Source: Escherichia coli
GTDB taxonomy: Bacteria; Pseudomonadota; Gammaproteobacteria; Enterobacterales; Enterobacteriaceae
Assembly (NCBI RefSeq): GCF_045037415.1
Contig: NZ_CP173438.1
DNA length: 64,000 nucleotides
Strand: one strand, 5' to 3'
Positions 3,056 through 64,000 of the stretch are shown here, piece after piece. The translations under genes were made by a program, and so were the position numbers. The first letter of the stretch is position 1, and the number at the start of each line of letters is the position of its first letter. The notes beneath the pieces are model-generated. The model made no database searches and was not told the DNA's origin. It was given only the letters and a program-made list of their open reading frames with translations.

Positions 3056-3333
3056 ATGATAATGAATTTCAGACACAAGGGATTGCGTGACTTGTTTCTT
3101 CTCGGCAAAACCTCCGGCGTTATACCGACGCAAGTCAAACGATTACGCCACCACTCGCTGTGATTGATGCAGCATGCTGTCTTGCTGATATCGATATGCC
3201 CGGTTACCGACTACATCCGTTAAGCGGCGATCGCGATGGAATTTGGGCGATATCTGTCTCGGGCAACTGGCGAATCACATTTGAATTCGTCAATGGCGAT
3301 GCATACATACTGGATTACGAGGACTATCACTGA
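3056..3333 (+). pseudogene. HigB-like (RelE/ParE superfamily) toxin gene disrupted by a frameshift near 3158-3163
   Basis: Frame A 3056..3163 = MIMNFRHKGLRDLFLLGKTSGVIPTQVKRLRHHSL*; frame B 3160..3333 = [57 protein letters not shown]; stop overlaps the yddM ATG (tgATG); pattern matches plasmid-maintenance-killer HigB family as recalled. Confidence 0.6.
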
Positions 3334-5209: not shown

Positions 5210-8200
5210 TTACGCCTTCTCGATGTTTACTAAGAACGCTTTATATTCCGGCGTTTGCGAGTTTGCATCACCGACATTCGGCGTCAGAGTGTTAGCGATA
5301 TAACCTTTACGCGCGACACCTTCAAAGCCCCAGTGGATTGGAATACCCACCGTTTCAACCTGCTGACCGTTTACATTCAGCGGTTTCAGACGGCGCGTTA
5401 CCACAGCCACCGCGCGGATAAAGCCACGCTTGCTGGAGACAGTGACACGATCGCCATTGGCAATGCCTTTCGCCGCCGCCAGCGTTTCGCTGATTTCCAC
5501 AAACTGTTCCGGCTGAGCAATTGCGTTGAGCAATGCGTGCTTGGTCCAGGTGTGGAAGTGCTCCGTCAGACGATAGGTCGTACCCACATACGGGAACTGC
5601 TCTTTTTTACCCATCCGCAGCGCGTCTTGTTCATACAGACGAACAACCGGGTTAGACACCACGTTCGGATGCAACGGGTTAGTGCCCAGCGGCGTTTCAA
5701 TTGGCTCGTAGTGTTCCGGGAACGGACCTTCCGCCATTTTGTTGATGGCAAACAGGCGTCCCATCCCTTCCGGTTGCATGATAAACGGCCCGGTTGGCGT
5801 ACCCGGCGCGGCATTGCCGAAGTCCGGAATATCGTTACCCGTCCACTTGCTACCGTTCCACTGGATCAGCATCCGTTTCGGATCCCACGGTTTACCGTTG
5901 ATATCCGCCGAAGCACGGTTGTAGAGTACGCGACGGTTGAGCGGCCACGCCCAGGCCCATCCCAGCGTATTCCCCAGACCGGACGGGTCGGAGTTATCGC
6001 GGTTAGCCATCTGGTTGCCCTGCTCGGTCCAGCTACCGGTGTAGATCCAGCAAGAAGATGCGGTTGTACCGTCATCACGCAGATGTGCAAAGCTACTCAG
6101 CAACTGACCTTTCTTCGCAATCAGCACGCCATTAGCGTCATAGAGATCTTCCAGCGCATAGCCGTTATTCTCTTTCGCCACTTCATCAGACTGCGGTTCG
6201 TGCGGCTGCTTGTAGTTCCAGCTCATCTTCATCAGCGGTTCTACGCCTTTACCACCTTCGGCCTGGTACAGCTCGCGCAGATGATGGTAGATACCCGCCA
6301 GAATTTCGCCGTCGTTACGTGCTTCGCCCGGCGCGTCCTGACCTTTCCAGTGCCACTGCAACCAGCGACCGGAGTTAGCGATAGAACCATCTTCTTCAGC
6401 AAAGCAGGTCGAAGGCAGACGGAATACTTCAGTCTGAATAGATGCCGGATCGACATCGTTCGACTCGCCGTGGTTCTGCCAGAAGGTAGAGGTTTCAGTC
6501 ACCAGCGGATCGATAACCACCATGTACTTCAGCTTGCTCAGGCAGCTCACCACTTTGTTTTTGTCCGGGAAGGACGCAACCGGGTTAAAGCCCTGGCAGA
6601 AATAACCGGTGACTTTACCTTCATCCATCATGTTGAAATACTTGATGACGTCGTAGGTCTGGTCCCACTTCGGCAGCCAGTCGTAGCCCCAGTTGTTCTC
6701 TTTCTGCGCGGCATCGCCGTAGAAAGATTTCATCAGGCTAACGAAAAACTTCGGATAGTTGCTCCAGTAGTTCACCTGATCAGCCAGCGTCGCTTTCGGC
6801 GTGTTCGCTTCCAGATACGACTGCAAATCAACCTGTTTTTCTGACGGCAGCGTCAGATAACCTGGCAGGCTGGTAGAGAGCAGGCCTAAGTCAGTCAGGC
6901 CCTGAATGTTGGAGTGACCACGCAATGCGTTCACGCCGCCACCGGCCATACCCATGTTACCGAGCAGCAACTGGATCATCGCCATCGTACGGATGTTCTG
7001 CGCACCCACGGTGTGCTGCGTCCAGCCCAGCGCGTACAGGAAGGTGGTTGTGCGATCCGGTGCGCTGGTGGAGGCCAGCACTTCACACACTTTCAGGAAG
7101 TCGGCTTTTGGCGTACCGCAAATGTTTTCTACTACGTCCGGCGTGTAGCGGGAAACGTGCGCTTTCAGCAGATTCCATACACAGCGCGGATGAGTCAGCG
7201 TGTCATCGCGTTTCGCATAGCCGTTTTCATCGAACTGATAGTTCCAGGACGACTTATCGTATTGACGTTTTTCAGCGTCGTAGCCGCTGAACAGACCGTC
7301 TTCGAAAGCAAAATCATCACGCACCAGCAGGCTGGCGTTGGTGTAATGCTTAACGTATTCGGCGTTGATTTTGTTGTTTTCGATCAGGTAGCGCAAAACG
7401 CCAGACAGGAACGTAATGTCCGTACCGGAACGAATAGGTGCGTAAATATCCGCCACAGAAGCGGTACGCGTAAAACGGGGATCGACAACGATCAAGGTTG
7501 CATCGTTGTTGTTTTTCGCTTCCATCGCCCAGCGGAAACCGACGGGATGCGCTTCAGCAGCGTTACCGCCCATCACCATTACGACGTTAGCGTTTTTGAT
7601 ATCCACCCAGTGGTTGGTCATCGCACCGCGACCAAATGTTGGAGCAAGACTTGCTACCGTTGGTCCGTGTCAGACGCGCGCCTGGTTGTCTACCGCCAGC
7701 ATCCCGAGGGAGCGGGCAAATTTTTGAGTCAGCATCCCGGTTTCGTTGCTGGCACCGGAAGCACACAGCATACCGGTAGAAAGCCAACGGTTTACCGTTA
7801 CGCCCTGCTCGTTCTTTTCAATAAAGTTAGCGTCACGGTCGGCTTTCATCAGCTTCGCAATACGGGAGAATGCTTCTTCCCAGCTAATGCGCTGCCATTT
7901 GTCAGAACCTGGCGCACGATATTCCGGGTAGCGCAGACGGTTTTCGCTGTTGACATAATCCAGCAAACCGGCCCCTTTCGGGCACAGCGCACCACGACTT
8001 ACCGGATGATCCGGGTCACCTTCAATGTGATAAATCGCTTCTCTGGCGTTTTTCGCGCCATCACCCAGGCTATACATCAATAGCCCGCAACCTACGGAAC
8101 AGTATGTGCAGGTGTTACGGATCTCTTTCGCGCGTAATAATTTGTAGTTTCGCGCCTGAGCCAGTGCTTGCTTCGGGGCAAAGCCCAATGCTGCTACTGT

Positions 8201-16407: not shown

Positions 16408-17102
16408 TGCAGATCCTCAAAGTGCTCGGCCTGTTGATGGAGTACCCAGACGAGTTGTTGTGGGAGTGTAAGGACGACGCGCTGGCGCTTATCCGCCGCG
16501 ACGCGCCGATGCTCACCGATTTTGCACTCGACCTGCTCAACGCCCCGCTGCTGGATAAACAGGCCGAATGGTGTGAAGTGTTTGACCGCGGGCGCACCAC
16601 GTCGCTGCTGCTGTTTGAACATGTTCATGCCGAGTCCCGCGATCGCGGCCAGGCAATGGTGGACCTGCTGGCGGAGTATGAAAAGGTCGGTCTGCAACTG
16701 AATTGTAGGGAACTGCCCGATTATCTACCGCTGTATCTGGAGTATTTAAGCGTACTTCCGGACGATCAGGCGAAAGAAGGATTACTCAACGTTGCGCCGA
16801 TCCTCACCCTGCTTGGCGGACGCTTAAAACAACGCGAGGCACCGTGGTACGCGTTATTTGACGCCCTGTTGCAACTGGCAGGAAGCCCTCTGTCAAGTGA
16901 CAGTGTCACAAAACAGATTCGCAGTGAAGAGCGTGACGACACCCGCCAGGCGCTGGATGCGGTGTGGGAAGAAGAACAGGTGAAGTTTATTGAAGATAAC
17001 GCCACGGCGTGTGACAGCTCGCCGCTTAATCAATATCAGCGACGCTTTAGCCAGGATGTCGCGCCGCAGTATGTCGACATCAGTGCGGGAGGTGGGAAAT
17101 GA
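16407..17102 (+). CDS. narW: Nitrate reductase Z assembly chaperone (231 aa)
   Basis: ORF 16407..17102; start overlaps narY stop. Confidence 0.88.
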
Positions 17103-17779
17103 TTCAGTATCTGAACGTCTTTTTTTACGATATCTACCCGTACTTGTGTGGCACGGTTTTTATCCTTGGAAGCTGGCTGCGCTACGACTACGGGCAGTAC
17201 ACCTGGCGCGCCGCCTCCAGCCAGATGCTGGATAAACGCGGGATGGTGCTGTGGTCAAACTTGTTCCATATCGGCATTTTGGGGATTTTCTTCGGGCACC
17301 TGTTCGGCATGTTAACGCCACACTGGATGTACGCGTGGTTTCTGCCGGTGGCGGTAAAACAGCAGATGGCGATGATCCTCGGCGGAATATGCGGGGTATT
17401 GACGCTGATTGGCGGTGCGGGGCTACTGGTGCGTCGTTTAACAAATCCGCGTATCAGGGCGACGTCTTCTGGTGCGGATATCCTGATCCTCGCCATTTTG
17501 TTAATTCAGTGCATTCTCGGGTTAACCACCATTCCTTTTTCAGCACAACATCCGGACGGCAGTGAAATGATGAAGCTGGTGGGCTGGGCGCAAAGCATTG
17601 TCACTTTCCAGGGCGGTGCATCTACGCATCTTGATGGTGTCGCCTTTATATTCCGCGTTCATCTGGTGCTTGGAATGACCATCTTCCTGCTCTTCCCGTT
17701 CACCCGACTGGTGCATGTCTGGAGCGCGCCGTTTGAGTACTTTACTCGTCGGTATCAGATTGTGCGTTCGCGGCGTTAA
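17099..17779 (+). CDS. narV: Respiratory nitrate reductase Z gamma subunit, cytochrome b (226 aa)
   Basis: ORF 17099..17779; membrane heme protein, overlaps narW stop. Confidence 0.9.
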
Positions 17780-19867: not shown

Positions 19868-20437
19868 GTGAGCCAATTCATTCCCGTCGAATTACACCAT
19901 GCCAGCTGTCTGTTAAATCATGGCCCAACTGTCATGATCACCAGTTTCGATGAGCAATCCCAGCGGCGTAACATTATGGCAGCAGCCTGGTCGATGCCCG
20001 TAGAGTTTGAACCGCCACGCGTGGCGATTGTGGTAGATAAATCGACATGGACCAGGGAGTTGATTGAAGGTAACGGTAAATTTGGCATCGTTATCCCGGG
20101 CGTTGCGGCGACTAACTGGACGTGGGCGGTGGGAAGTGTGTCGGGTCGTGAAGAAGATAAGTTTAATTGCTACGGCATTCCGGTAGTGAGAGGCCCGGTG
20201 CTTGGTTTGCCGCTGGTCGAGGAAAAATGTCTGGCGTGGATGGAGTGTCGCCTGCTACCTGCGACTTCCGCGCAAGAAAAATACGATACGCTATTTGGCG
20301 AAGTGGTATCTGCAGCGGCAGACGCACGAGTATTTGTCGAAGGCCGCTGGCAGTTTGATGATGATAAGCTCAATACGTTGCATCATTTAGGTGCTGGCAT
20401 GTTTGTTACCAGTGGTAAGCGAGTTACGGCAGGTTAA
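19868..20437 (+). CDS. yddH: Flavin reductase-like protein (189 aa), probable GTG start
   Basis: ORF 19868..20437; first codon is gtg; recognised as YddH. Confidence 0.8.
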   Translation: MSQFIPVELHHASCLLNHGPTVMITSFDEQSQRRNIMAAAWSMPVEFEPPRVAIVVDKSTWTRELIEGNGKFGIVIPGVAATNWTWAVGSVSGREEDKFNCYGIPVVRGPVLGLPLVEEKCLAWMECRLLPATSAQEKYDTLFGEVVSAAADARVFVEGRWQFDDDKLNTLHHLGAGMFVTSGKRVTAG

Positions 20438-20507
20438 GCATTACATGCTGTAACCGGGTTTCTTTATCAAAGCCTCCATTTGGGGCGCGATTTCGGCCAG
20501 GGCAAGA

Positions 20508-21644
20508 TTACGAAAGCCCGCTCCCCGCAAGGACTGACGCGAGATAGTTTCTGTCCATGGCTGCTTTTCGCATCTTACGTCTTAACCCTGCCTTGAATAC
20601 CTTATCATTCGTTAAAATATTAATAGCGATGTGCCGTATCCCTGAAAATAATTCTGCGGCGTTTCCTCTTCTTATTTTGCAGTCGTCTTCATTCATTACC
20701 ACGTCCAGACGCCAGTGCAGCTTATTCTCCACGTGCCAGTGGTTTCGGATTGCTGTGGCGAACTTCTCTGCGGTTAAATCAGCAGAACTGATATAATATC
20801 TGACCGTCATTTCTGGCTCTTTCTTTTGTTCTGCTATTATGGACCGAAAGGAGACTGCCACGCATAATTTCTTCAGTCCTTTCCATTCGAACGTGAAATC
20901 AATAAGTTCATCAGGGACATCGCAAACAATATGAAGACGGATTTCTTCTCTGCCGTGACTCTTTTCACTAATGGCGTAACTGTCATGTTCTGGATTATTT
21001 AATTCTTTCAGTGGAAATTTTTCCTCAAAGGCTTTATTAAGCCGCCCCTGATTTCCTTTTACAGCGAATAAATAATCACCGCCCTGTTTTTGTATCTTCT
21101 CTGCAATATCTTTCTGGCAACCCATCGCATCAGTTGTGATGATTTTTCCTTTAATATCCAGCATGTTAAGAAGTTCAGGGATAGGTGTAATTTCATTGGA
21201 TTTCTCATCCGTCCTGATCTGTCCGATGACCAGACTGTGCATTGTTGAGAACGCACTAATGACATGAATCGCTCCCTTGCGGCGACTCTTGTCATAAGAA
21301 TGCCGGAGTGTTTTTCCATCAATTGCGATGACGTCTTTATCATCTGAAGAATGGCAGTCACGCATCCAGTTAATAAAGCACTCGTGAAATTTTGCAGGAC
21401 TGATACAGGATACAACTCTGGCAATGGTATCGTGAACAGGAATACCATTATCAAAATCACCATATTGCTTCAAAAAATCGAGATGTGTTTCCCCAAAATC
21501 CTCTATATCTTCCCAGCCTTCTGCACCCGAAATAACGGCACAAATAGTCAACAGTAGAATATCCGATAATTTATGTTCCACTTTCCAGGCTTGTCTGTAA
21601 TCGGGGATAATAGAAATATGTTCCATCAATTTTTTAAGTTCCAT
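20508..21644 (-). mobile_element. H-repeat-associated protein / ISAs1-family transposase gene (378 aa), AT-rich; element ends not defined
   Basis: ORF 20508..21644; [52 protein letters not shown]... recognised as the YdcC/YhhI/YbfD H-rpt protein family. Confidence 0.82.
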
Positions 21645-22455
21645 TTTGTTCTCCTTAATTATGTAAGGAGTATTTGATCATGTATAAGCAATAAAAAACA
21701 GCTTCAGGTAATGAGGAATATCTCAATTTTTAAACATAAAATGCGAATTATTTAGTACAAAAAAGCAGCGTTACGTGATCTTTCCCTGATATCTTAATCT
21801 GCACATAGCCATCTTAACGTTATGCCCCATACATTAGTAATGTAAATTAAGAATTCGGAATATATTAAATTCACTTCATAAATTAATATTGAGAATGATA
21901 TACACATTAATTATATTGAAGTAATGTTTTAAGAGTTGTAATGCCCATGGAACAGGACTAATTCCAGAAACTCCTGTTGGGCAATAGCGCGTTTATCACC
22001 CTACATGCCTCTTACATTTTTTAGCCTTTTCTGTAATGTCGGCAATTGGCTCATTTAATCAGCAATTGTATTGGTATTTGGCGTATTACCCCTGAAACCC
22101 ATCATGTGCTAGCCCCTCACTATTCATTGAGCCAACCACGCCAGTGTCCACTGCAACCACTGGCGTTCAGAGCGACGAACGAGTGGCGCAAGAGTAGGAC
22201 TGCAGTCAGGTATCATCAAACCAATAGTGGTTGTTTCCGTCATAATTTCATCAGGTTGCTATTTTGTCGCCAGCCGACTTTATCCCCACATATTTATAGC
22301 GGGATTATTTTGCATCGTTACATGATAAAAGGTAGGATTCTGCGCCGACAGTTATACCCATAAAGAATAATGGTGAATCTTGTCATCGCCAGGATGAATA
22401 AACATTGTTCATGGCAACTTATATGACTTTTTCATTAAAGCAATCAGGGAGAGCA

Positions 22456-23955
22456 ATGAGTAAACACAACACCGACACTTCAGATCAACACGCCGCGAAA
22501 CGCCGCTGGCTTAATGCCCACGAAGAGGGGTATCACAAAGCGATGGGCAATCGCCAGGTACAGATGATCGCCATTGGCGGCGCGATTGGTACGGGTTTGT
22601 TTTTAGGCGCGGGGGCGCGACTGCAAATGGCGGGGCCCGCACTGGCACTGGTCTATTTGATCTGCGGCCTGTTTTCGTTTTTTATTTTGCGTGCATTGGG
22701 TGAGCTGGTGTTACACCGCCCTTCCAGTGGCAGTTTTGTCTCTTATGCCCGTGAGTTTTTGGGTGAGAAGGCCGCTTATGTTGCTGGCTGGATGTACTTC
22801 ATCAACTGGGCGATGACGGGGATTGTTGATATTACCGCCGTCGCTCTGTATATGCATTACTGGGGCGCGTTTGGCGGCGTGCCGCAGTGGGTCTTTGCGC
22901 TCGCTGCACTGACCATCGTTGGCACCATGAATATGATCGGTGTGAAATGGTTTGCGGAGATGGAGTTCTGGTTTGCGCTTATTAAAGTGCTCGCCATTGT
23001 AACCTTTTTGGTCGTGGGTACAGTGTTCCTCGGTAGCGGTCAGCCGCTGGATGGCAACACCACTGGCTTTCATTTAATCACCGATAATGGCGGCTTCTTC
23101 CCCCACGGTTTGCTGCCTGCGCTGGTGTTGATTCAGGGCGTAGTGTTTGCTTTTGCCTCCATTGAAATGGTGGGTACAGCGGCCGGAGAATGTAAAGATC
23201 CGCAGACCATGGTACCTAAAGCGATTAACAGTGTGATTTGGCGTATTGGTCTGTTTTACGTCGGCTCCGTGGTGTTGCTGGTTATGTTATTGCCGTGGAG
23301 CGCATATCAGGCGGGGCAAAGTCCGTTCGTGACGTTTTTCTCTAAACTGGGTGTGCCATATATAGGCAGCATTATGAACATTGTGGTGCTGACCGCTGCC
23401 CTCTCCAGCCTGAATTCAGGTCTGTACTGCACCGGGCGTATTCTGCGCTCGATGGCGATGGGCGGTTCCGCACCGAGTTTTATGGCGAAAATGAGTCGTC
23501 AGCATGTGCCGTATGCCGGGATTCTGGCGACACTGGTTGTGTATGTCGTCGGCGTATTCCTCAACTATCTGGTGCCGTCACGCGTATTTGAGATTGTGTT
23601 GAACTTCGCGTCGCTGGGAATCATCGCTTCATGGGCGTTTATCATCGTTTGCCAGATGCGCCTGCGTAAAGCGATTAAAGAAGGCAAAGCAGCGGATGTC
23701 AGTTTTAAACTGCCTGGCGCGCCCTTCACTTCCTGGCTGACATTACTGTTTTTACTGAGTGTCCTGGTGCTGATGGCGTTCGATTACCCGAACGGGACTT
23801 ATACCATCGCGGCGCTGCCGATTATCGGTATTCTGCTGGTTATAGGCTGGTTTGGTGTGCGCAAACGCGTTGCTGAAATTCACAGCACTGCGCCAGTCGT
23901 CGAGGAAGATGAAGAAAAACAGGACATTGTGTTTAAGCCTGAAACGGCGAGTTAA
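22456..23955 (+). CDS. ansP: L-asparagine permease, APC family (499 aa)
   Basis: ORF 22405..23955 trimmed to ATG 22456 (MSKHNTDTSDQHAAKRRW) with gggagag SD. Confidence 0.88.
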   Translation: MSKHNTDTSDQHAAKRRWLNAHEEGYHKAMGNRQVQMIAIGGAIGTGLFLGAGARLQMAGPALALVYLICGLFSFFILRALGELVLHRPSSGSFVSYAREFLGEKAAYVAGWMYFINWAMTGIVDITAVALYMHYWGAFGGVPQWVFALAALTIVGTMNMIGVKWFAEMEFWFALIKVLAIVTFLVVGTVFLGSGQPLDGNTTGFHLITDNGGFFPHGLLPALVLIQGVVFAFASIEMVGTAAGECKDPQTMVPKAINSVIWRIGLFYVGSVVLLVMLLPWSAYQAGQSPFVTFFSKLGVPYIGSIMNIVVLTAALSSLNSGLYCTGRILRSMAMGGSAPSFMAKMSRQHVPYAGILATLVVYVVGVFLNYLVPSRVFEIVLNFASLGIIASWAFIIVCQMRLRKAIKEGKAADVSFKLPGAPFTSWLTLLFLLSVLVLMAFDYPNGTYTIAALPIIGILLVIGWFGVRKRVAEIHSTAPVVEEDEEKQDIVFKPETAS

Positions 23956-27515: not shown

Positions 27516-27747
27516 GGCTGTATTGCTGGCACAACATAGCAACGTTTTTTTGCATAGTGAGGTTTTCGACAGCCAGAGCAACTGCCATTAACTCCAGTTC
27601 GTAGCGGATCCGATTGATTTCATTTAATTGACGTTTTCCCACTTCCGGAACTGTAAATGCTTGCGCTGGTGCGACAAAGAGCGCATTTACCGAAACCAGA
27701 CGTAAGGAACCGGCGCGCCATGCGGACGCGAGGACAGAACCCAACAT
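27511..27747 (-). pseudogene. Short ORF (78 aa), possible remnant of a transcriptional regulator (mcbR-like) gene
   Basis: ORF 27511..27747 with in-frame stop two codons upstream of its start; lies where K-12 (from memory) has curA and mcbR between yncA and yncD; assignment is inference. Confidence 0.3.
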
Positions 27748-27953
27748 CGGTTACGCTGCGTTTGTTGCCCCATAATGCTCTCCTGTGCTTTTGGCATGAA
27801 TCCATCAATAGTAGCAGGCTCACAGGATTGGTTTTGTTTGCAGCCGTCACATCCCCTCTGCAACACGCAATAATTTCATAGAGGAATCCGTTGCTTCGGG
27901 CTGTTTTCGATAGTATTGATAACATCATCATCATTATTTTATCGAGGCCAGAC

Positions 27954-36876: not shown

Positions 36877-37116
<240 letters not shown>

Positions 37117-50498: not shown

Positions 50499-51020
50499 TC
50501 ACACCGTAGCAAAACTAACTGGTTCACCCGCTCCTCGTGGTTCTGCCGACACAGAATGTTTGTTCAGACGGAATACGTCCACCGCCTCAGTTAGTCGTGC
50601 CGCCTGTTCTTCAAGGGACACCGCCGCCGTTGAGGCCTCTTCTACCAGAGAAGCATTCTGTTGCGTCACCTTATCCATTTCAGAAATCGCCTGGCTAACC
50701 TGCGTTATGCCTCGACTTTGTTCACCCGAGGCGGTGGCGATTTCCTGCATGATATGTGTGACACTCGCGACGGCATCAACAATAGTGCACATGGTTTTCC
50801 CTGCCGTTGCCACCTCATCCGATCCCAGGTCAATTAACCTGACTGATTCACTGATCAAGCCTTCAATCTCTTTCGCCGCCTGGGCGCTGCGGCTTGCGAG
50901 TGTCCGTACTTCGCTGGCGACAACGGCAAATCCACGGCCTTGCGAGAGTAACGAATGATTAAACTGGCTAAACCGAATGACGAAAAATTCTGGAAAGCAG
51001 CACGCGATTTCGTCAGGTGA
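50499..51020 (-). pseudogene. 5'-truncated methyl-accepting chemotaxis protein (trg-like) remnant: C-terminal signalling domain only
   Basis: In-frame translation ...[34 protein letters not shown]...VSFATV*; MCP homology starts near 50942; upstream in-frame segment (to stop at 51021..51023) is unrelated and has no ATG/GTG/TTG; no TM, periplasmic or HAMP region. Confidence 0.6.
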
Positions 51021-51099
51021 TTATTTTCGTCCCTAAGGAAACCACATAGGATGCTCACGGGTGCCTGAGACTTTCTGTTTTCAGGCTAACCTGGAATCA

Positions 51100-51145
51100 G
51101 AAAGACGAAGGCCCCGACCGATATTTCTATCAACCGAGGCCAACG

Positions 51146-51175
<30 letters not shown>
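51100..51175 (-). ncRNA. sokB: Expected position of the SokB antisense RNA (approximate)
   Basis: Placement by analogy with hok/sok loci where the antisense RNA overlaps the mok translation-initiation region; exact ends not determinable from sequence. Confidence 0.3.
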
Positions 51176-51354
<179 letters not shown>

Positions 51355-51769: not shown

Positions 51770-51833
51770 CTTCCGATGTAGGCCCGTATTCTTCGCCTGT
51801 ACCACGGGTCGGTTTTAGTACAGGCGTTTTCTT
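51770..51833 (+). ncRNA. rydC: RydC small regulatory RNA
   Basis: cttccgatgtaggcccgtattcttcgcctgtaccacgggtcggttttagtacaggcgttttctt matches the RydC sequence as recalled; terminal hairpin cgcctgtac/gtacaggcg plus U tract; sits between ydcA and cybB. Confidence 0.7.
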
Positions 51834-62161: not shown

Positions 62162-64000
62162 TTAGAACGTTTTCTTGAAGTTTAGCATCACACCTTTATC
62201 ACTGATGCCGTCTTCTTTCCAGTGGAATGCATCTACCTGCAACGCACTTTCCTGGCTGCTGTATTTCACACCCATTGTCGCCAGGCTGTTGAAACCACCA
62301 CCATTCTGACCATCATCAATGTTGAAACGCTGGCTTCCCGCGCCCGAAACGCTCGCAGTTCGCTGGCTTTTCACATAGCTCAGGTTCGGGCCGCCTTCCA
62401 GCGTGGCGTTCGCACTCCAGCCGTCCTTACCGGCATAGTCCAGTTTCAGCCCAACAATGCTGTCCACTGCCGTTTCGCTACCGCTGTTCATGCTCAGGTT
62501 AAAGTCACCCGCATTGCGTTCCTGATAGCCACCCTCCAGTGTGTGACGCAGTTTAACCCCGGCATATGGCGTGACGTTCAGCCCTTCACGCAGCTCAAAG
62601 GTTTTCGCCCCTTCACTACGGAACTCCAGGTACTGTTGTTTCACATTAGCATCGGCTGTTTTATTGATATCGCCGTACGCTACCGAGCGGCTGCTGTCGA
62701 GCTGGTGCACATCATAACGCAGGGCGTTATTCCAGTTCATACCGTTGTCAAAGGCCATCTGGTGTTTCAGACCGAAGAACTGGCTGTAACCGCCTGTCAC
62801 TCCGTTATCGCCTGCGGTATCTGAACCATTACCCTCCAGACGCGCAATCCCGTATTCCAGACTCAGGTTCTGATGTTCAGTCAGCGTCAGAGATTTACGC
62901 AGCGCCATCATGTCGTACTGTGTGTCGTTACCCAGTTCAGCACGCGGGTCGCCTTTCGCTACCACGTTGAAGGCCAGACCGTTTGCGACTTCCGGTGCTG
63001 CATCGGACAACATGCTGAAGCGGTTACTTAACACTCGTGCTTCATTGAATACCGTTGTTGCCTGGCTGCCGCTGACCTGTTTCAGCGCACTGTTCAGTTC
63101 CGCCGTGGTGCCTACGTTCAGGCTGCTGTACAACTCGTTGTTGGTATAGCCCGCATCCAGTACCTGCGCGACGGTGTTAACAGATGAATCTGTTGCTACA
63201 TCGGTGTAGGCATTTTTAGTCATCGTGACATCAACGTTGCCGCTGGCGTCAGTAGTGCCTTGCGCGTTCCATACCACAGAGGTCGATGTAATCGTCTCTG
63301 CGTCGGTCAGATTACTGCCCTGAACGACGTTGTCGAAGGTCACGGAGGTGGAGCTGGTTCCAGCCGTAAATCCGGTGTTAACAGAAACCCCTTTCAGGCT
63401 TGCATTGTTCACTTTCAGCTTGCCGGCACTGCCGTCAGAACTGGTTCCTACAACATAACCATTCAGTTTGTTCTGGCTTCCGTCACTGGACGGGGTGCTG
63501 GCCGCAACAGAAACCGACGAGCCAGGTACATCAGGCAAAGTGTAATCAGCATAATGCACTTCGCTATTGTTACCGTTATTGCCGTTCACACCTTCAATGT
63601 TAACGCTGTCACCTTGCTTGATTAGCCCGGAACCTGTCACTCCATCGGCAATAGTCACTGTGCCGTTGTTCACGAGGTGGCCTACGGAACCCAACATGCT
63701 AAATGCAAAGGAGTTGTTGGCGTAAATGTTGATGGCGCCATTGTTCTCAATGACCGCATCAGCTGTCGTGCCGCTGTCCAGTTGCATCCCGATCATGCCC
63801 GTGTCGGTCGTGCCCGACGTTCCGAGGTTGATCGTGCCGTTGTTAACCAGTCGTGCGTTTTTATCCCCTTCCATCGCAATAGCGTTATTACCGCTAATAT
63901 TCATGGTGCCGTCATTCTGCGCAACGTAATTGCTGTGAATGAATTTCACTGCAACGCCGCTGTCTTTATCAAAATTGACGACCCCATTGCTCTGGTTCCA
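62162..64000 (-). CDS. ydbA: Autotransporter-type outer membrane protein (YdbA-like), C-terminal part; 5' end lies beyond the window
   Basis: ORF 62162..63949 stays open in frame to 64000; Gly/Thr/Asn-rich passenger repeats and C-terminal beta-domain ending ...LNFKKTF. Confidence 0.75.
   Translation of the reverse strand, partial: WNQSNGVVNFDKDSGVAVKFIHSNYVAQNDGTMNISGNNAIAMEGDKNARLVNNGTINLGTSGTTDTGMIGMQLDSGTTADAVIENNGAINIYANNSFAFSMLGSVGHLVNNGTVTIADGVTGSGLIKQGDSVNIEGVNGNNGNNSEVHYADYTLPDVPGSSVSVAASTPSSDGSQNKLNGYVVGTSSDGSAGKLKVNNASLKGVSVNTGFTAGTSSTSVTFDNVVQGSNLTDAETITSTSVVWNAQGTTDASGNVDVTMTKNAYTDVATDSSVNTVAQVLDAGYTNNELYSSLNVGTTAELNSALKQVSGSQATTVFNEARVLSNRFSMLSDAAPEVANGLAFNVVAKGDPRAELGNDTQYDMMALRKSLTLTEHQNLSLEYGIARLEGNGSDTAGDNGVTGGYSQFFGLKHQMAFDNGMNWNNALRYDVHQLDSSRSVAYGDINKTADANVKQQYLEFRSEGAKTFELREGLNVTPYAGVKLRHTLEGGYQERNAGDFNLSMNSGSETAVDSIVGLKLDYAGKDGWSANATLEGGPNLSYVKSQRTASVSGAGSQRFNIDDGQNGGGFNSLATMGVKYSSQESALQVDAFHWKEDGISDKGVMLNFKKTF

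Follow-up and report, generated by a model that had tools for sequence, protein, structure and literature searches.

The DNA between yddH and ansP in the Escherichia coli stretch studied here (64,000 nucleotides, hereafter the window) is, as read from its sequence, very probably a cassette-less, vestigial allele of the vgrG/Rhs hot spot located between yncG and pptA. A single complete copy of ISEc1 bridges the two conserved sides of the locus, its low end being joined to a 3' stub of pptA and its high end to a short border piece. Compared with related haplotypes, two small genes, vgrG, a DcrB/Eag-type chaperone gene, a PAAR-Rhs toxin gene, an immunity gene, symE and most of pptA are missing. 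The site is Rhs 'position 6', which has been placed between yncG and pptA (Jackson et al. 2009, BMC Genomics 10:584, PMC2935791) and is the RhsE site of K-12; b1455-b1461 appear as Rhs site 5 in another list (Archer et al. 2011, PMC3032704). Its flanks are those of the recognised Rhs locus, with yddH and the truncated pptA on one side and the remains of yncG and ansP on the other. The large ORF with RHS/YD repeats and an RHS core end, usually following vgrG, by which an Rhs element or a vgrG-Rhs T6SS effector island is recognised, is absent. The region is not itself an Rhs element, and its place is occupied by one in other strains. Neither an Rhs nor a vgrG gene lies between yddH and ansP or elsewhere in the 64-kb window, so the transposase found here is not part of a larger complete Rhs element, a possibility kept in view by an earlier note on this DNA. 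The same note had placed pptA, H-rpt ORFs and RhsE between yddH and ansP of K-12, which is correct according to the K-12 annotation; pptA, however, is not wholly gone from the window, where it is truncated to 18 codons.

Both genes flanking the hot spot are intact and conserved. On the left, yddH (flavin reductase family; 19868-20437, + strand) is 94% identical to its K-12 counterpart, with a dS of 0.26 and a dN/dS of 0.10. On the right, ansP (L-asparagine permease; 22456-23955, + strand) shows a dS of 0.10 and a dN/dS of 0.02 in the same comparison. Strain 4/1-1 matches 57 kb of the window with 3 mismatches, and many human isolates are 100% identical to it over the 3.2 kb that surround the feature.

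ISEc1 (H-rpt, ISAs1 family) is complete and occupies 1291 bp on the minus strand (20498-21788). Its ends were set by comparing copies: homology with those of K-12, C11 and O157 breaks off at 20497/20498 and again at 21788, and these limits agree although the contexts outside the ends all differ between the three strains. The terminal inverted repeats (20498-20521 and 21765-21788) are imperfect, matching at 18 of 24 positions, and both start with CAGGG, the motif with which ISAs1-family ends begin in the ISfinder description. A target-site duplication was not found at the ends, where the flanks read GATTTCGGC and ATATCTTAA; the K-12 and C11 copies likewise have none, and none appears when a K-12-type left flank is paired with a UTI89-type right flank. 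Of the two checks proposed earlier for the element, delimitation of the ends thus succeeded through comparison of copies, and the search for duplications yielded nothing. The missing duplication is not evidence against the nature of the element, because later rearrangement of the flanks would be expected to leave none. By its transposase, ends and size, the element is a true ISAs1-family insertion sequence.

The transposase gene (20508-21644, minus strand) is an intact ydcC ortholog of 378 codons, identified by its ORF together with Pfam and NCBIfam models, and takes up 1137 of the 1291 bp. Its product scores 413 bits against the NCBIfam model NF033564 transpos_ISAs1 (cut-off 70) over 314 of 314 model positions, and contains the Pfam domains DDE_Tnp_1_assoc and DDE_Tnp_1. 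In genomes 100% identical over the region, RefSeq labels it ydcC, 'ISAs1-like element ISEc1 family transposase'; family models and RefSeq naming thus agree with the first reading of this ORF as an H-rpt/ISAs1-type transposase. The DNA identity of the element is 96.1% with the K-12 copy and 96.7% with that of C11, and the transposase differs from K-12 YdcC by 11 amino acids (dS 0.12, dN/dS 0.10). Domestication of the transposase was considered in view of this dN/dS and rejected, as orthologs at the locus are broken in four strains (internal stop in O157, frameshift in C11, truncation in O145, fragments in UTI89) and there is no sign of host need. A hairpin over the Shine-Dalgarno sequence of the transposase gene (21651-21670) was also rejected as a translational control; its folding energy is -8 kcal/mol but its z-score only -1.08. 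Transposition of H-rpt has never been observed (Archer et al. 2011, PMC3032704). Literature retrieved under the name ISEc1 consists mostly of papers on ISEc10 and ISEc12, which are other elements.

On the yddH side, translation compared with K-12 PptA reveals what is left of pptA, its final 18 codons with the stop (20441-20497, minus strand), reading AEIAPQMEALIKKPGYSM up to the stop. The stub is cut exactly at the terminus of the IS, and homology to K-12, L725 and C11 ends at 20496/20497. On the ansP side, alignment to cassette-bearing strains delimits the border piece (21789-21888), to which no strand is assigned and which has 100 bp and 26% GC. It is 96% identical to L725 and C11. Identity falls to about 75% with K-12 and O157, in which the piece is located between yncH and, respectively, rhsE and vgrG. 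In other strains this piece is a conserved flank just outside the first gene of the resident vgrG/Rhs cassette.

What occupies the site varies widely among strains. From ansP to yddH, K-12 carries yncG, yncH, the rhsE pseudogene, ydcD, yncO, yncI (a degenerate H-rpt), ydcC and pptA, and O157:H7 carries yncG, yncH, vgrG, an RHS core, small ORFs, an ISAs1 transposase and pptA. In the same direction, L725 has the 472-bp tract that follows the IS in the window (21789-22260), two small genes, VgrG, a DcrB-type gene, a PAAR-Rhs gene (1558 aa), an immunity gene, symE and pptA, with no IS; Pfam recognises Phage_GPD/VgrG, DcrB, PAAR with RHS repeats, SymE and Tautomerase in this cassette. Set against L725, 9861 bp are missing from the window, and the IS stands where they would be. 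C11 shows the order pptA-symE-gene-ISEc1, with symE and pptA intact and the IS abutting the first cassette gene at its codon 43, and Trh52 has an IS-free deletion leaving a vgrG fragment. GPEC996 and MSHS 133 carry an L725-type cassette, then symE, then a truncated ISAs1 copy. UTI89, Nissle and O145:H28 hold PAAR-vgrG cassettes. In UTI89 and O145:H28 the remains of two directly oriented ISEc1 copies lie on both sides of the cassette; Nissle has an ansP-side ISEc1 fragment, the stretch examined extending only that far. The proposed comparison with RhsE-type loci therefore upholds the footprint of an Rhs site, but the closest cassette-bearing haplotypes carry another vgrG/Rhs cassette and not RhsE.

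The distribution of the arrangement was assessed in 5426 complete E. coli genomes. Longer joint probes (200 and 70 nt) were uninformative, their matches being joined across a 259-bp gap, and a 50-nt probe was used instead. With this probe, the joint between the pptA stub and the IS is found in 553 of the 5426 genomes, once in each, one of them being named O25b:H4-ST131. The joint between the IS and the border piece occurs in 556 genomes and the whole arrangement in 565, and no genomes with one window-type joint but not the other are evident (553 vs 556). Both joints are thus clean markers. Each of the window-type genomes listed has a single ISEc1 place. A further 1790 or so genomes (2342 minus 553) have an intact pptA with the low end of ISEc1 89 bp upstream of it in the same orientation, which implies that 259 bp, counted from the tip of the IS, have been lost in the window. 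In 693 genomes, among them IHE3034, Nissle and O145:H28, a high end of ISEc1 is found at most 26 bp from the border point seen in the window. No immediate precursor of the window allele is present in the genome collection.

Altogether, these comparisons bear on how the allele arose. ISEc1 appears to be an old resident of the locus rather than a newcomer, because its orientation is the same as in K-12, O157, O145 and C11 and its synonymous divergence is like that of the flanking core genes (transposase dS of 0.12 against K-12, compared with 0.07-0.26 for yddH, nhoA, yddE, ansP and yncE). Judging from sister haplotypes, the lineage of the window presumably once carried a cassette, and this cassette and its flanking DNA would have been removed by deletions anchored at the termini of the IS. 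The removal could have taken place through nested IS-adjacent deletions, with C11 resembling a plausible intermediate, or through recombination between two ISEc1 copies that lay as direct repeats on either side of the cassette, followed by small losses. Nested deletions are slightly preferred. The right joint falls within 5 bp of identity (CCCTG) common to the tip of the IS and L725-type sequence, for which the chance is about 1 in 1000, and this suggests that the step producing the right joint may have involved short-homology joining; the left joint has a microhomology of 1 bp only. Because neither window-type joint occurs without the other, how and in which order the deletions took place can only be inferred.

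The alternative route, which concerns the manner of loss and not the loss itself, is possible if rather doubtful. It holds that homologous recombination between two direct ISEc1 repeats around the cassette left a hybrid IS with flanks from two insertion sites, and that small deletions, one of 259 bp and one of about 26 bp, later gave the present joints. The paired remnants that bracket the PAAR-vgrG cassettes of UTI89 and O145:H28 at this very locus speak for it, as do the two tandem H-rpt copies of K-12 (yncI and ydcC), and the missing target-site duplication is consistent with it. Moreover, the subterminal sequence at the high end of the window IS matches the border-side copy of UTI89/O145 at 10 of 12 positions, compared with 3 of 12 for K-12 and C11. 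However, two complete copies at the required sites were not found in the L725/C11 haplotype among the genomes examined. Nor is there a clear mosaic, as the positions at which the window IS departs from the copies of K-12 and C11 are evenly distributed except for one 12-nt cluster, and the CCCTG overlap at the right joint is not explained by this route alone. The right flank of the window also belongs to the L725/C11 haplotype (96-97% identity), whereas the haplotype carrying the widespread IS/border joint of UTI89 is only about 75% identical. This mismatch means that derivation of the window joint as the same joint minus 26 bp is not straightforward, and the UTI89 joint is regarded as parallel rather than as a direct precursor.

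Both of these routes presuppose the loss of a cassette, and here the two readings offered by the earlier note part company. The footprint of a lost Rhs element is favoured, the two flanks of the IS being 9.86 kb apart in L725 with the cassette between them; a minimal H-rpt insertion, that is, fresh transposition of ISEc1 into a site without any past cassette in the lineage, is not. The completeness of the IS, its intact ORF and its well-defined ends would suit such an event, but it is most improbable given that no direct repeats flank the IS, that its flanks are never neighbours in the IS-free genomes examined, that pptA is truncated rather than just interrupted and its 5' part is missing from the region, that no second ISEc1 is available as a donor in the window-type genomes listed, and that the divergence of the IS from the K-12 copy at the locus equals that of the flanking genes.

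The DNA between the transposase gene and ansP (21645-22455) can be read part by part. It had been described as one AT-rich non-coding segment; it is indeed AT-rich and holds no credible gene, but it consists of four distinct parts, namely the end of the IS, the border piece, fragments of a yncG pseudogene and the core upstream region of ansP. The first 144 bp (21645-21788) belong to the 1291-bp IS. The GC content is 0.299 in these 144 bp, 0.260 in 21789-21888, 0.427 in 21889-22260 and 0.385 in 22261-22455; it is 0.404 in the IS, 0.518 in yddH, 0.525 in ansP and 0.507 in the whole window. The AT-richness ascribed to the transposase and its flank relative to their neighbours is thereby borne out (0.40 in the IS and 0.26-0.43 from the IS to ansP, against about 0.52 in the flanking genes).

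Beyond the border piece lies a decayed pseudogene of yncG (glutathione S-transferase), preserved as two fragments (22019-22252, minus strand) that were detected by tblastn with K-12 YncG as query. Residues 61-100 of YncG match 22252-22133 with 60% identity (E 8e-11), and residues 175-200 match 22096-22019 with 50% identity (E 8e-5), the latter match containing a stop in frame. As DNA, the blocks remain colinear with K-12, with three deletions between them, and codons 1-60 and 101-174 have been lost; similarity to YncG, position and orientation beside ansP, and lesions all mark it as a pseudogene. A frameshifted yncG of K-12 type occurs at the same place in UTI89 and Nissle. A remnant of yncH was sought and rejected, the sole match being 6 aa long, non-colinear and with an E value of 0.38; yncH is gone. 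The only ORF of at least 40 aa in 21645-22455 is one of 105 aa with a TTG start (22046-22363, + strand). It is spurious, as first suspected: it has no Pfam or NCBIfam match, is unannotated in the matching genomes and runs antisense to the yncG fragments.

The last part, the upstream region of ansP (22261-22455, + strand), is the sole part of the AT-rich tract that belongs to core E. coli. It is matched in 5407 of the 5426 complete genomes and is at least 80% covered in 3217, the UTI89 type covering positions 48-195; homology into it begins at 22261 in K-12 and at 22308 in UTI89 and Nissle. The ansP promoter probably lies within it. In a promoter and terminator scan of 20400-22500, counts did not exceed those in shuffled sequence (5 promoter-like sites, 5.9 expected), and no site can therefore be assigned as the promoter of ansP, of the transposase gene or of the former cassette. 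The non-IS part is far less widespread: the 472-bp tract is found close to its full length (at least 80%) in 781 of the 5426 genomes, and 1763 further genomes match only about its first 100 bp. The AT-rich tract as a whole is accordingly not conserved core sequence of all E. coli, the counter-finding named in the earlier note; only its last 150-195 bp are.

A function for 21789-22260, whether as a non-coding locus (an sRNA or a regulatory leader) or through a small protein such as that of the 105-aa ORF, is very hard to credit as an alternative to debris: it is favoured by 96-100% conservation among the 781 carriers, a + strand promoter-like site at 21889-21917 (10 of 12 matches) and an ORF that stays open in L725 with 12 of 105 residues different, but the ORF has no family match and an early stop in C11, promoter-like sites do not exceed the shuffled level, no Rfam match was found at E up to 1 in a permissive scan of 20300-22700, the tract is missing from 86% of complete E. 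coli genomes, and colinear yncG fragments with a stop and three internal deletions explain the sequence. At the Rfam gathering threshold, the only matches across the whole window are to sok, RydC and a SECIS element, and each of them lies outside the region.

The seemingly empty AT-rich DNA upstream of ansP is thus mostly pseudogene and IS debris and conceals no hidden gene; the stretch encodes the transposase only, and ansP retains its own core upstream region. Window-type genomes have no toxin/immunity cassette, PptA, YncG or YncH at the old Rhs site. The feature is of little importance beyond correct annotation. The locus does show ISEc1/H-rpt copies marking the edges of vgrG/Rhs cassette turnover, and the recurrence of ISEc1 ends at cassette boundaries weakly hints at a role of H-rpt in that turnover. 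It is conceivable, though quite unlikely, that H-rpt/ISEc1 itself drives the turnover of toxin cassettes at vgrG/Rhs hot spots, its termini serving as fixed anchors for deletion and exchange within and between loci. This idea draws on IS ends that fall exactly at cassette boundaries in several diverged haplotypes, on the two ISEc1 copies bracketing cassettes in UTI89 and O145, and on the presence of some of the same proteins beside ISAs1 remnants at the fadE-side vgrG locus of SCU-387 and at the window locus in Nissle. If it were true, the single functional ISEc1 of window-type genomes would be a relic of that activity.

The closest known counterpart of the element is H-rptE/ydcC of K-12 (b1460, in the RhsE element), with which it has in common its locus, orientation relative to pptA and yddH, length of 1291 bp, CAGGG termini and a 378-aa product. 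In K-12 the element is found 89 bp upstream of pptA, which is intact there, and before the element come a second, degenerate H-rpt (yncI), ydcD, the rhsE pseudogene, yncH and yncG. The window IS, in contrast, abuts the pptA stub at one end and the border piece at the other, without yncI, ydcD, rhsE, yncH or an intact yncG, and also differs from the K-12 copy in a 12-nt subterminal stretch at its high end. Orphan T6SS islands of the order vgrG-Eag(DcrB/DUF1795)-PAAR-Rhs-immunity are present beside the same 472-bp tract and ansP in L725, GPEC996 and MSHS 133; the window retains the outer border of such effector islands and none of their genes, and represents their site rather than a member of the class. 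Jackson et al. (2009) and Archer et al. (2011) had this very hot spot of the chromosome among their Rhs sites. Mere vestiges were reported at Rhs positions 1 and 6 for one group of pathogenic strains (Jackson et al. 2009, PMC2935791), and the window matches those at position 6. The feature is therefore an ordinary one that has already been described in outline, and its fine structure adds annotation detail and a marker to these accounts: a single intact ISEc1, the 18-codon pptA stub, the yncG fragments and the exact joints found in 553 genomes.

The yncG pseudogene fragments of the window (22019-22252, minus strand) have only about 70% DNA identity to K-12 yncG (positions 5248-5865 of the K-12 stretch, L002), against about 94% for the flanking genes. 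The yncG of UTI89 and Nissle is frameshifted and of the K-12 type, with the UTI89 copy 93% identical to that of K-12. Together, the low identity of the window fragments and the K-12-type copies in UTI89 and Nissle show that two very old yncG haplotypes segregate beside ansP.

At the high end of the ISEc1 copy, a 12-nt subterminal stretch lies at 21765-21776, corresponding to IS positions 1268-1279, and sequence comparison showed that nine of its 12 positions are unlike those of the K-12 and C11 ISEc1 copies, while the border-side ISEc1 fragments of UTI89 and O145 resemble the window stretch. Because of this difference, the inverted repeat of the window copy is better, with 15/20 matching positions compared with 13/20 in the K-12 and C11 copies.

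Cassettes appear to have moved between two old Rhs positions, as suggested by identical proteins (WP_000536612.1 and WP_001529091.1) adjoining PAAR/VgrG genes at both loci: the fadE-side vgrG locus of SCU-387 (L007, fadE/yafV), where ISAs1 remnants lie alongside, and the ansP locus of Nissle (L012).

Elsewhere in the window, narV (narV/narI, 17099-17779) has a dS of 0.71 and a dN of 0.086 relative to K-12. Since this divergence is several times greater than that of its neighbours (dS 0.07-0.26), it suggests that narV in the window is a divergent imported allele. At the far end, an 8.5-kb gene beside pdxI (62162-64000, continuing past the window end) is labelled in RefSeq as an 'EntS/YbdA MFS transporter', which is implausible given the gene size. 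This gene is probably an intact ydbA carrying the wrong name, because the same position in K-12 is occupied by the ydbA autotransporter pseudogene, interrupted by an IS.

The RelE/ParE-family toxin gene at 3056-3333, adjoining yddM (HigA-type antitoxin), is frameshifted. According to the annotation, hicB (36877-37113) is incomplete, with the N-terminal part missing, and it has no neighbouring hicA. Only a C-terminal fragment of trg is present (50499-50942), adjoining hokB and RydC; Rfam matches mark the sok antisense RNA of hokB at 51059-51210 and RydC at 51770-51833.

Between pqqU and mnaT (27550-27717 and 27705-27773), curA is missing from the window, and only a 168-bp internal fragment of mcbR (yncC) is left. 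In contrast, mcbR is intact at that place in L725 and C11, and O145:H28, GPEC996 and MSHS 133 possess both mcbR and curA, whereas UTI89 and Nissle share the mcbR truncation of the window.
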